Source: a virus (lineage: Duplodnaviria; Caudoviricetes). Taken from it: a DNA stretch of 64,000 nt. Below, piece by piece: positions 49,073 to 60,279 of this stretch; positions within the stretch are counted from its first letter, which is position 1, and each line of letters starts with the position of its first letter. The stretch lies in IMG/VR virus record IMGVR_UViG_3300023218_000040, positions 128,001 through 192,000 of that record. The stretch is one strand, 5' to 3'. The position numbers were made by a program, and so were the translations under genes. Below the pieces are notes generated by a model that saw nothing but the letters and a program-made list of their open reading frames with translations, did no database searches and was not told the DNA's origin.

Positions 49073-49295
49073 ATATCGATATAAACAAGTATGCTGCCAG
49101 ATTGGAACTTAGAAATGGTTTACCCTCATTTGATTTTCTTTCTCTATTACTAGGATGGTTTATGATGGATAAGGAAGAAAGACATTCTTGAAGAAATTGA
49201 TAGACTAGAGAGGGAAGATCAGCCGACACTCAGGTAGAATCCGTTGACATATCGTCGGCACGGGGTTACAATAAAGAAAGCCGAGGGTATAACCA

Positions 49296-49940
49296 ATGGA
49301 TAATGCAGAGCTTCAATATGTAAACGGATTGGGAAGCAAGGAGACCGGATCGCATTTGGACAGGTTCCGTGTGCTCCGTTTGAACGCTGACTTCCGTCCG
49401 ATGTCTTATTATCCGCTGTCCACTTGGAACTGGCAGCAGGTAATGTTTTTGCTCGTCAAGGGCATGAACACTGGTACTCCTCGCATCAAGGTCGTGGAGG
49501 AGTACGATGATGTCTACGTCCGTGGTGCCCACAATAAGTTTCGGCTGCCGTCCGTCGTAGCTCACTTGGACTACGTTCCGCCGCCGACTAGAGTTCCGTA
49601 CACGAAGTTCAACATCTTCCTTCGTGACGACTTTACGTGCCAATATACTGGCGAGCGTTGCCGTCCGAGCGACCTGACGTTCGATCACGTGGTACCCCGT
49701 GCCAAGGGTGGACAGTCAACCTGGAACAACATCGTTGCGGCTCGACGTGATATCAACGAGCTAAAGGACCACATGTCGGCTGCGGAGTTTGCAAAGCGAC
49801 ATGGATACCATCTGATTCGTAAGCCATACGAACCATCGTACCATGAGCTTCAAAACAAGGGGCGCAAGTACCCACCGCAATACCTGCATGATTCCTGGGA
49901 AGATTATCTTTACTGGAGTTCTGAACTAGAACAGGGTTAA
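49296..49940 (+). CDS. HNH endonuclease (bacterial HNH_5/McrA-like family)
   Basis: VL.LNAD..P...W, LPSV, RD.FTCQY.G, LTFDHVVPR.KGG..TW.NIVA. Confidence 0.85.
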   Translation: MDNAELQYVNGLGSKETGSHLDRFRVLRLNADFRPMSYYPLSTWNWQQVMFLLVKGMNTGTPRIKVVEEYDDVYVRGAHNKFRLPSVVAHLDYVPPPTRVPYTKFNIFLRDDFTCQYTGERCRPSDLTFDHVVPRAKGGQSTWNNIVAARRDINELKDHMSAAEFAKRHGYHLIRKPYEPSYHELQNKGRKYPPQYLHDSWEDYLYWSSELEQG

Positions 49941-49961: not shown

Positions 49962-50363
49962 ATGACACCGAGGTTCGCAAGAGATGTAAGGAGAGCACTA
50001 CCGAAACTCTTGGTGGTGCTTTTCTTTATTGGTATAGTCTCTTTGTTCTGGAAGATCGCTTACGGTGGCGGTCTAACTATTGGACCGCTTTTTCCGAAAG
50101 AAGAGCCTGTAGCTGAGGTTGTACCGGTAGAACCACAACTAGAATGGATGGTGGTCAATGCCAACAACACTTTGGTGTGGCCATTCAAGAGAGGAACTTG
50201 TCAGAAGAACAAGGCGCACTCTCAGTGGCACAAAGGAGAAGTGGTTTTGGTAATCAGTCGCCAGGATAACTACATCGAAGTCGAATCAGATAAAGACCGT
50301 GGCCCGCTGAGCCGTGGTTGTATCAACGAGAAGCTACTGGACCCTTACCATAATAAGGATTGA
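49962..50363 (+). CDS. Membrane-anchored protein with possible SH3-like domain
   Basis: N-terminal TM helix; GEVV.VI..QD.YIEV...G.I..K.L. Confidence 0.55.
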   Translation: MTPRFARDVRRALPKLLVVLFFIGIVSLFWKIAYGGGLTIGPLFPKEEPVAEVVPVEPQLEWMVVNANNTLVWPFKRGTCQKNKAHSQWHKGEVVLVISRQDNYIEVESDKDRGPLSRGCINEKLLDPYHNKD

Positions 50364-50515
50364 AATTTTCTCCATAAACATTTTAAAGTTTGGTACTGCC
50401 GGATCGGCAGGAAATAACGCCTTTGGAGAGGACATAAGACCAAAGAAATCTAATAATTTCGGAGGCATCCTCGTTGAATTAGGAAGCTCCGCCCTTTAAG
50501 GGCGGGGTAGATCAC
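50364..50515 (+). mobile_element. Orphan right end of an IS200/IS605 (TnpB) element: TnpB C-terminal remnant and omega-RNA-like scaffold
   Basis: Reads INILKFGTAGSAGNNAFGE...LVELGSSAL* (TnpB C-terminus-like); subterminal hairpin CTCCGCCCT-TTA-AGGGCGGGG (50487-50507) then TAGA-TCAC end; no tnpA/tnpB ORF or left end seen. Confidence 0.7.
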
Positions 50516-50742
50516 GACGGATTTGTTAGGCGCTCGTACAACTCAGGATCTATTTCTTTGACTTTATCCAAGAAGTTTATGAGTTCTCCAGCGCTGTAGA
50601 AAACTTCGGTTTTGTCTTGGGTACGGAAGGCCAACACGGTTTTCTTTCGAATACCACGAAAAGTCACAGGTTTTTGTCCGTTGAGTTCACGAATGTGATC
50701 AACGGTGTCTATTAAAGTATCGTTTGAATATTTGGTGCTCAT
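50512..50742 (-). CDS. Hypothetical protein
   Basis: GGAG upstream; its TGA stop is the complement of the element's TCA(C) end. Confidence 0.55.
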   Translation of the reverse strand: MSTKYSNDTLIDTVDHIRELNGQKPVTFRGIRKKTVLAFRTQDKTEVFYSAGELINFLDKVKEIDPELYERLTNPS

Positions 50743-50865
50743 GAGGATCTGTCTCTCCAGATTGTCACGCCCGCTAATTTAATACTGTTGCTTGTCTGTC
50801 AAATCTCTACGGATAGGACGACAGACTCATACTGGTCACGTTGACGTTTAGACCGCTGCTCGTTT

Positions 50866-57465: not shown

Positions 57466-58677
57466 ATGGCCACATTTTCAGTTCCAGTCGTCCGTATCGA
57501 CGCCATCGAGGACCATCCCAATGCCGACGCCTTGGAGATCGCCAAGGTGCGTGACTTCGATTGCATCACCCGCATCGGTGAGTACAAGGCTGGTGATATC
57601 GCTGTGTACATCCCCGAGGCTGCGGTCATGCCCGAGTGGCTGCTGAAGCGCATGGGTCTGTGGGATGAGGAGAAAGGCAAAGGCAAGCTGGCAGGCAAAG
57701 AAGGCAATCGTGTCAAGGCTGTCAAGCTGCGTGGCGTCGTGAGTCAGGGTCTGTTGTACCCGGTGTCTTGGGATGACCCAGATCTGTCTCAGGGAGAGAC
57801 TGTCGGTCTGCCTCGTGTCGATCTGAGCGACGGCGAAAGCTACCTGCTGTATGACTGGAACGACGTGGACATCGAGACCATCAAGTCTCGTTGCATCGAC
57901 GTGGACGTGGGAGACGTGCTTGGCATCACCAAGTGGGAGCCTCCCATTCCGACGCACATGGCTGGTGAGGTCTGCAACATCTTCGGCCACACTCTGAAGT
58001 TCGACATCGAGAACATCCAGAAGCACAACGAGGTTCTGGTTTCGGGCGAGGAGGTCGTGATCACCGAGAAGCTTCACGGCACCTGGACGTGCTTTGGCTT
58101 CGATCCGGACCTGGATCACGAGGAACTTCTTCACGGTGGCACCATCATCAACTCTAAGGGTCTGAGCGAGCAGGGTTTGGCATTCAAGTGGAACGACGCC
58201 AATGACAAGAACCTGTACGTTCGGATGTTCAAGCAGTACATGCTGGATACTGGTAGATGGAACAAGGTGATGGACATGGCCGTTCGTCGTGGCGAGCCCG
58301 TGTTCATCCTGGGTGAGACCTTCGGTCCTGGTGTACAAGATCTGCACTACGGTCTGAAGGAGAAGAGTTTTCTGGTGTTCGGCATCTACGTCGGCAAGCC
58401 GGGTCAGGGTCAATACCTCGATCACGTGGAGTTCAAGCAGACGTGCTCCTGGCTAGAGGTTTCCACGGTACCGGTCCTGTACCATGGTCCGTTCAGCATG
58501 GATACTGCCAAGAGCTTTCGTGACGGAAAGGATACCATCACCGGAGCCAACATTCGGGAGGGTATCGTGATTACTCCGGTTAAAGAACGAAACGATTTCG
58601 TGCTGGGTCGGGTGACTCTCAAGATGATCAGCCCGGACTACCTGCTGCGGAAGGGCAATGCCACGGAATTCAACTGA
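57466..58677 (+). CDS. RNA ligase, DRB0094 family (N-terminal OB-fold plus nucleotidyltransferase)
   Basis: I..I..HPNAD.LE.A, AVYIPE, R.KA.KLRG..SQG, K.EP, EKLHGT, GE..G..VQ, REG.V, K.IS..YL. Confidence 0.88.
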   Translation: MATFSVPVVRIDAIEDHPNADALEIAKVRDFDCITRIGEYKAGDIAVYIPEAAVMPEWLLKRMGLWDEEKGKGKLAGKEGNRVKAVKLRGVVSQGLLYPVSWDDPDLSQGETVGLPRVDLSDGESYLLYDWNDVDIETIKSRCIDVDVGDVLGITKWEPPIPTHMAGEVCNIFGHTLKFDIENIQKHNEVLVSGEEVVITEKLHGTWTCFGFDPDLDHEELLHGGTIINSKGLSEQGLAFKWNDANDKNLYVRMFKQYMLDTGRWNKVMDMAVRRGEPVFILGETFGPGVQDLHYGLKEKSFLVFGIYVGKPGQGQYLDHVEFKQTCSWLEVSTVPVLYHGPFSMDTAKSFRDGKDTITGANIREGIVITPVKERNDFVLGRVTLKMISPDYLLRKGNATEFN

Positions 58678-58833
58678 AATGTGATGTGGTCACGTACATG
58701 ATGGGGGTGTTCTGCGAACACCCCATCAGTTGAGGCAATGCTGGAGACACCGCATGATCGACCTACACACCGCTGCTATCGTTAACCTCAAGATGGTCGC
58801 TACCTGGGAGCCTCGTCCTCTCCCGGATGCGAA

Positions 58834-59016
58834 GTGAGCATCCTTATCCCGACCTTAGTGAGCCTGGGGTTCGGGATTTTCGGAATGATGCAACATCATC
58901 GAGGGGATTTCTACTGGTTTCAGTGTGGGTGGATGTGGGTAGGGATCATTTCCATCATCGGAGCCGTCACGGGACTCGGTGTGTTTTGTGTCACAAAACT
59001 GATCGGAATCTCTTGA
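58834..59016 (+). CDS. Small membrane protein
   Basis: Two hydrophobic segments. Confidence 0.45.
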   Translation: MSILIPTLVSLGFGIFGMMQHHRGDFYWFQCGWMWVGIISIIGAVTGLGVFCVTKLIGIS

Positions 59017-59382
59017 CGAGATTAGGGTACCTCTGTATACTACTTCCATCAGTTGAGGCAATCCCAGGAAATTCACATGACCGCATTCACGAAGTGGTTC
59101 GCAGAGAGGGTAAATCGGATAGCGTAATGCGAAACAGCACAAAACGGTTCATGGTCACTTTCACGGTCGAAGGTGTCCCCGGTGATCCCATCACCCAAAC
59201 CTTCATGGACTGGATAGGGACCACCCGCAAGGATTTGAAATCCCGTCTCACGAGGCAGTACGGTGGGAGAAAGGTGACAATCATCGAATTCAAACAAACC
59301 CCGTGATTTAGGCCACATTCCACGAGAAAGTTCTTGACGAATAAGTTGGAGTAGCGTATACTACTTCCATCAGTTGAGGCAA
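59013..59382 (+). repeat. Repeated early-promoter/leader motif TATACTACTTCCATCAGTTGAGGCAA (59036-59061, 59357-59382; partial at 58723-58738 and 60258-60269)
   Basis: Both full copies sit 17 nt after TTGACG with unrelated spacers. Confidence 0.85.
59127..59306 (+). CDS. Hypothetical protein
   Basis: TAATG-coupled to a 16-codon ORF (59077-59127) downstream of the promoter. Confidence 0.5.
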   Translation: MRNSTKRFMVTFTVEGVPGDPITQTFMDWIGTTRKDLKSRLTRQYGGRKVTIIEFKQTP

Positions 59383-60033: not shown

Positions 60034-60212
60034 CCGTCTACAAGTTCAAGGCTCTCCATGTACCGACTGGAACCGTCCACGAAAAAATGGGTGAGTTCCA
60101 GTCGGCCCTGGCTTTCTATCAAGCTCTGGAGGAATACAATAGACTGGCGGCGCTCCAGTCCTGTCGCCGGGAAGATCGAAGACTGTGGGTTTACTATTCT
60201 GACGGAAACTGA
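60030..60212 (+). CDS. Hypothetical protein
   Basis: ATGA overlap, GAAGGA RBS. Confidence 0.55.
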   Translation: MTVYKFKALHVPTGTVHEKMGEFQSALAFYQALEEYNRLAALQSCRREDRRLWVYYSDGN

Positions 60213-60279
60213 TACGTAGATCACAGACTTTCTGTACGAACTAATATATAATATCTTCATCAATTGAGGAGATACCACG

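Follow-up and report, generated by a model that had tools for sequence, protein, structure and literature searches.

The segment 50371–50515, on the plus strand of the window (i.e., of the whole 64,000-nt stretch of giant-phage DNA analysed here), corresponds to the rightmost 145 nt of an IS605/IS1341-type tnpB element and comprises the 3′ tail of tnpB, an omegaRNA scaffold that is complete and a right end of the IS605/IS1341 type; the origin, the boundaries and the intact fold of this segment are documented by the data presented below. The best explanation of its presence is that of a remnant of such an element deprived of its left end and of almost the entire tnpB, and we consider this reading probable. 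The features of the segment and of its surroundings are the following:

49244–49272, plus: strong sigma-70-like promoter (11 of 12 in a consensus scan) of the operon of the HNH and 133-aa genes
49962–50363, plus: 133-aa gene with a membrane anchor and an SH3-like part, resident and conserved in related phages
50360–50389, plus: weak sigma-70-like site (9 of 12), its −35 in the flank and its −10 in the tnpB tail, with a predicted start at stem 1
50371–50499, plus: remnant of the tnpB C-terminal reading frame (S-I-N-I-L-K-F-G...), the same tail being found in the tnpB-linked ends L164, L191 and L266
50396–50410, plus: omegaRNA stem 1, a 6-bp hairpin with the 3-nt loop GAU (50402–50404)
50420–50483, plus: RAGATH-18-like omegaRNA core, consisting of stems 2 and 3 and an apical hairpin
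50420–50424 with 50479–50483, plus: stem 2, with two U.U positions
50428–50432 with 50468–50472, plus: stem 3
50486–50508, plus: IS605/IS1341-type subterminal hairpin of the right end, corresponding to omegaRNA stem 4
50511–50515, plus: 3′ strand of the pseudoknot, AUC (50511–50513), and end motif TCAC (50512–50515)
50516–50535, plus: would-be guide, i.e., 20 nt of the flank on the right, running antisense to the final codons of the 76-aa gene
50512–50742, minus: 76-aa ORF, with its stop codon from the element end and a match to phrog_16235 (E 0.0015)

The identification relies on a covariance model (R1) trained on 40 tnpB-linked ends, none of which comes from this phage. All 117 model positions (1–117) are matched at 50385–50515 with a score of 72.9 bits and an E value of 3.6e-22, and this is the only real match in the window and in the 204-kb contig, since the next best (60131–60224 of the window, E 0.53) is attributable to chance. 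The training ends having been chosen by their terminal motif, the 3′ end is favored by construction; the 5′ two thirds match too. Furthermore, a pattern derived from the terminal 34 nt recovers at least 178 stretches (58 in genomes and more than 120 in metagenomes), mostly located at tnpB 3′ ends, so that, taken together with the R1 match, the right end cannot be regarded as a chance occurrence. The TnpB C-terminal tail and the IS605-type right end proposed in the original prediction are thus borne out, with the correction that the element had been made to start at 50364 whereas homology begins at ~50371. The similarity to TnpB 3′ ends that the same prediction expected from profile searches emerges with the covariance model and not with protein searches, including those with protein profiles, in which the 41-aa tail, too short when used alone, yields no match. 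Pairwise DNA alignment of the upstream part with archaeal ends likewise remains at background level, and it is only the covariance model that settled the identity of this part. The independent Rfam model RAGATH-18 (RF03064) gives a weak match at 50420–50485 (25.9 bits, E 0.12) that does not reach its gathering score of 44.9. No close donor element was found in the phages, plasmids, E. coli or viral contigs searched, and the apparent relative L186 turned out to be a chance match inside a sugar-dehydratase-like gene.

The segment displays the properties of an omegaRNA, in that it overlaps the coding 3′ tail of tnpB as well as the right end of the element, its stems 1–3 and right-end hairpin are paired and a pseudoknot can be formed. 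The tnpB frame, which begins just past the site of the last RuvC catalytic Asp motif (the motif itself is missing) and ends with the stop codon 50497–50499, has neither a start codon nor a ribosome site of its own. Stem 1 has a non-consensus sequence in which all six pairs are kept. Among the distinct ends of the tnpB set, 52 have a GAA/TTC pseudoknot and 11 a GAG/CTC one, with 96.7% of the cells paired; the pseudoknot of the window (GAT/ATC) represents a third, fully complementary solution, so that both stem 1 and the pseudoknot have been kept by compensatory changes (GAU:AUC in place of GAA:UUC). This complementarity indicates that the parent RNA was under selection for its fold and shows that the ancestor worked, a conclusion that does not extend to the present copy. 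The two U.U positions of stem 2, on the other hand, occur in none of 214 TCAC-type ends and are present in IS607 ends, one of which belongs to an element with intact tnpA and tnpB; they are therefore to be seen as natural variation and not as a sign of decay. An IS607-like lineage may be the source of the core, which would have been joined to an IS605-type end through an exchange of ends between the two families, a link that is to be taken as a lead, since the IS607 loci with a similar core were retrieved by means of the window's own motif.

The segment is an orphan, as originally predicted, and this is true not only of its vicinity but of the entire contig. Profile searches of the 204,014-nt contig detected neither TnpB (PF07282, PF01385, NF040570 and a custom HMM built from 72 TnpBs) nor a Y1 transposase (tnpA); this virus record is estimated to be 55% complete and the effector searches, including the recommended search of the genome for tnpB, cover that part. 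A left-end hairpin mirroring the right end, which full elements and miniatures of the same family do show, is found neither upstream nor elsewhere in the contig. The automatic left-end detector, which is conservative and missed some left ends visible by eye, recognised at least 12 miniatures with both ends 100–500 nt apart among the viral loci and none here. In the absence of a left end the segment is neither a transposon nor a PATE-type miniature and its transposition is impossible. Indeed, of the hallmarks of an IS605/IS1341 mobile element, a left end preceded by a TAM (target-adjacent motif) and a tnpB, optionally accompanied by a Y1 tnpA, between the two ends are lacking; a complete scaffold with no adjacent effector, the mark of a standalone omegaRNA, is present. 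The neighboring HNH gene (49296–49940) was considered as a possible effector or cargo of the element and discarded, the matches of its product with IscB and Cas9d models being limited to the HNH motif and far below cut-off, no left end being present upstream of it and its relatives having no adjoining scaffold.

The 20 nt described in the original prediction as a “self-targeting guide” are located at 50516–50535, directly after TCAC. The guide of an omegaRNA always equals the DNA flank and cleavage requires a TAM before the target. At this locus the guide is plain flank, preceded by the end motif of the element itself and not by a TAM, so that the self-targeting proposal is left without support. 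A second target of this guide with fewer than three mismatches, for which a search had been suggested, was found neither in the contig nor in the phage and plasmid collections. The occupied site shows the end motif, and in characterised elements this motif is distinct from the TAM (bioRxiv 10.1101/2023.03.14.532601). One TnpB with a TCAC TAM, AmaTnpB, is known (PMC10278001), which makes self-cutting by a foreign enzyme formally possible; nothing at this locus supports such cutting, and self-targeting by this guide is unlikely.

As to its setting, the segment lies between a plus-strand operon, in which the HNH endonuclease gene is followed by the 133-aa gene whose stop codon precedes the tnpB tail by 7 nt, and the convergent 76-aa ORF, which comes after a minus-strand tRNA cluster. 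The boundary of the element is at 50515 and, in agreement with what had been noticed at the outset, its end provides the stop codon of the gene 50512–50742: the TCA at 50512–50514 is the TGA stop on the minus strand, with the final C of TCAC as third position of the terminal Ser codon. This donation was rejected as a proof of co-option, since 28 of 236 ends (~12%), with or without tnpB, donate a stop to a convergent ORF of at least 70 codons, as compared to 5.6% for control stops.

Some other features of the window are of separate interest. Next to the tRNA cluster lies a 403-aa ORF (57466–58677 of the window), which we take to resemble RNA ligases having a tRNA-binding domain at the N-terminus. 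Promoter-like cassettes sharing a common short word are repeated before small genes at 59013–59065, at 59335–59382 and also near 58720, reminiscent of the early-promoter cassettes of large phages. Right behind a tRNA, a non-coding stretch of ~115 nt (50745–50862, minus strand) recurs at L313:1622–1745 and L310:2012–2140 (minus) and is strongly conserved in these three phages despite different neighboring genes; its inner stem varies, its 3′ hairpin shows covariation, it has no match in an Rfam search and it may be a structured RNA or ribozyme, not described so far, that belongs to the tRNA cluster.

The comparison of strains and of related phages bears on the history of the segment. Two near-identical strains (>99%) carry the same element, and among the three strains there are three polymorphisms in its 145 nt (2.1%), compared to 7 synonymous changes in the ~1,830 coding nt common to all three and to 0 in 165 nt of adjacent tRNA, counts that are too small to prove neutrality. 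Each of these polymorphisms, at 50455 (in the window), 50468 (in one strain) and 50494 (in the other), weakens a pair and none is compensated; with the 50455 allele of the window, the predicted fold departs from the consensus. Stem 1, pseudoknot and guide are identical in all three strains. More distant phages, whose HNH proteins are 83–87% identical, are syntenic around a variable slot (window 50364–50749) located between the 133-aa gene and a conserved non-coding landmark at ~50750. This slot is empty in L313 and occupied by a glutaredoxin gene in L310/L311, scaffold and 76-aa gene being both absent from it in these relatives, which indicates that the scaffold with its guide flank, ~385 nt in all, is foreign to the slot. 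An empty target allele, i.e., TAM followed by guide, was not seen in the related phages; the empty-site relatives that had been hoped for are thus missing from a thin sample, the members of which lack the whole 76-aa gene.

To account for these data by a left-end-less remnant, it can be envisaged that the stop codon of the 76-aa gene was the insertion site of the parent element. The left ends of loci of this family are preceded by TT-rich pentamers (e.g., TTTAT, TTTAA and TTGAA) that presumably represent the family TAM, and if the TAM was TTTAT or TTTAA, the 76-aa protein would have had the same last residue before the insertion as after it, a circumstance that would explain why the insertion did no harm. 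The phage could then have imported the gene and the element end as a single patch of ~385 nt or, by another route, could have gained gene and element in turn, with subsequent deletion of the remainder. The data are equally compatible with an alternative in which TTGAA at 50360–50364, whose resemblance to the family TAM is a weak lead, was the actual TAM and an internal deletion took out the rest. Persistence would be mostly passive, the segment being fixed because the last bases of the element serve the neighboring gene as stop codon, with drift now beginning. The upstream operon transcript would probably include the segment as a 3′ tail, with nothing to guide and nothing to cut. Some facts do not sit easily with a remnant: the break spares the whole scaffold with a margin of only ~25 nt, stem 1, pseudoknot and guide do not vary among the three strains, a promoter-like site is found at the 5′ end of the scaffold, the sequence searched amounts to 55% of the genome, and TnpB is encoded in 3 of the 5 near-complete virus records of the orphan check (including one orphan-less control phage).

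The original prediction had left the choice between a relic and a guide acting in trans. The latter would be a standalone omegaRNA arising by read-through or from the promoter at the junction; after trimming, it would associate with a TnpB or TldR of the host, or with one specified by the rest of the phage genome, and would direct it to a TAM followed by the 3′ end of the 76-aa gene in competing phages that carry this gene without the insert. The strong promoter of the upstream operon and the lack of a terminator-like plus-strand site before the scaffold make read-through plausible; a complete fold with a compensated pseudoknot is found in a probable transcript, and the 5′ leaders of omegaRNA precursors are known to be trimmed by TnpB (PMC10278001). 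The promoter-like site 50360–50389 would start the RNA at stem 1; however, such a site arises in 6% of local shuffles and is present in 6 of 42 tnpB-linked viral ends, and is therefore not enriched beyond what is expected of AT-rich DNA. Activity in trans has been reported for standalone omegaRNAs (PMC10691335) and for PATEs (bioRxiv 10.1101/2023.03.14.532601), and a TnpB domain is encoded elsewhere in 9 of the 29 virus records with orphan scaffolds. On the other hand, no TnpB partner is encoded in the 204 kb (55% of the genome), neither an empty allele nor another guide target was found, and the 50455 allele displaces the predicted fold. It is the lack of a partner in that 55%, the lack of an empty allele and the uncompensated polymorphisms that favor the relic, whereas a guide acting in trans appears unlikely.

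A local role, in which the right-end hairpin would end transcripts between the convergent operon and the tRNA cluster while read-through RNA would be antisense to the 76-aa gene, is suggested by the convergent layout of the genes, by the strong G+C hairpin right behind a stop codon and by the origin of the stop codon from the element. Nevertheless, the hairpin is not followed by a U-tract and is called by the terminator scan on neither strand, such a role would not require the 115 nt upstream, and related phages do without the element, so that co-option of this kind is improbable. Very improbable is a minimal guide-only parasite or weapon, in which a left-end-less omegaRNA expressed from the junction promoter would borrow a TnpB, cut the uninserted 76-aa gene of rivals and spread by homing. 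Finally, abortive homing would involve cleavage of an empty site by TnpB and a repair restricted to copying the right end, so that the start of the guide would be found a second time on the left side, as in the 13-nt duplication on both sides of the IS607 end of the orphan L192. This origin is scarcely credible here and largely refuted by the lack of such a duplication in the window (the longest match, 5 nt, is inside the element) and by a left flank that is the coding end of the conserved 133-aa gene.

Two sets of loci encountered in this survey deserve mention in their own right. At L192:3752–3920 (minus strand) an orphan IS607 right end, compared with L191 and 97% identical to a full element from the same sample, has one and the same 13-nt sequence, made of end core and guide start, on either side, and looks like the product of an abortive TnpB homing resolved by microhomology. 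The viral contigs L277, L291, L306, L203 and L207 contain gene-less omegaRNA units, some with a left end (miniatures of 170–190 nt) and some without, having a near-consensus sigma-70 promoter directly before the scaffold; this makes them stronger candidates than the segment studied here for standalone guides that are expressed.

As a remnant the segment has little import beyond annotation, where it explains a gap of 150 nt. More generally, TnpB guide scaffolds without an effector are often encountered in phage genomes (about one third of the sampled ends). Should the RNA be loaded in trans, a phage could keep a guide with neither a nuclease nor a mobilisable element, and a simple route to guide-only homing and to conflict between phages would be available. 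In addition, omegaRNA engineering gains a minor, naturally occurring example in the compensated pseudoknot variant.

In its general architecture the segment resembles the corresponding part of elements such as ISDra2, where the loop of stem 1 pairs with the last scaffold bases as a pseudoknot (PMC10097598), and ISGst2, whose end motif is TTCAC (bioRxiv 10.1101/2023.03.14.532601): the omegaRNA overlaps the tnpB 3′ end, a stem-1 pseudoknot and a subterminal hairpin are present, the end is TCAC and the guide is the flank. Unlike these elements, it has no left end, tnpB body or tnpA, its pseudoknot is GAU:AUC, its end is ATCAC and stem 2 contains two U.U positions. With the standalone omegaRNAs (Altae-Tran et al. 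2021, as summarised in PMC10691335) and the gene-less PATEs (bioRxiv 10.1101/2023.03.14.532601) it shares a guide scaffold without an adjoining effector or transposase gene; PATEs, however, have both ends and can be mobilised, whereas the segment is a single copy without a left end, and the published cases share their genome with a compatible effector, whereas none is found here in the 55% searched. The core motifs weakly match those of the RAGATH-18-derived reRNA of IS607 TnpB (PMC11061315; RF03064), and the most similar cores found are those of IS607 ends in viral contigs; unlike the IS607 reRNA, the segment scores below the Rfam gathering threshold and terminates with an IS605-type hairpin and TCAC instead of an IS607 end. 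Ends without a tnpB are no rarity: among 67 viral TCAC ends there are 25 of them (some are miniatures, others lack the left end), and the segment accordingly represents a leftover of a familiar, rather frequent type and not a new system.
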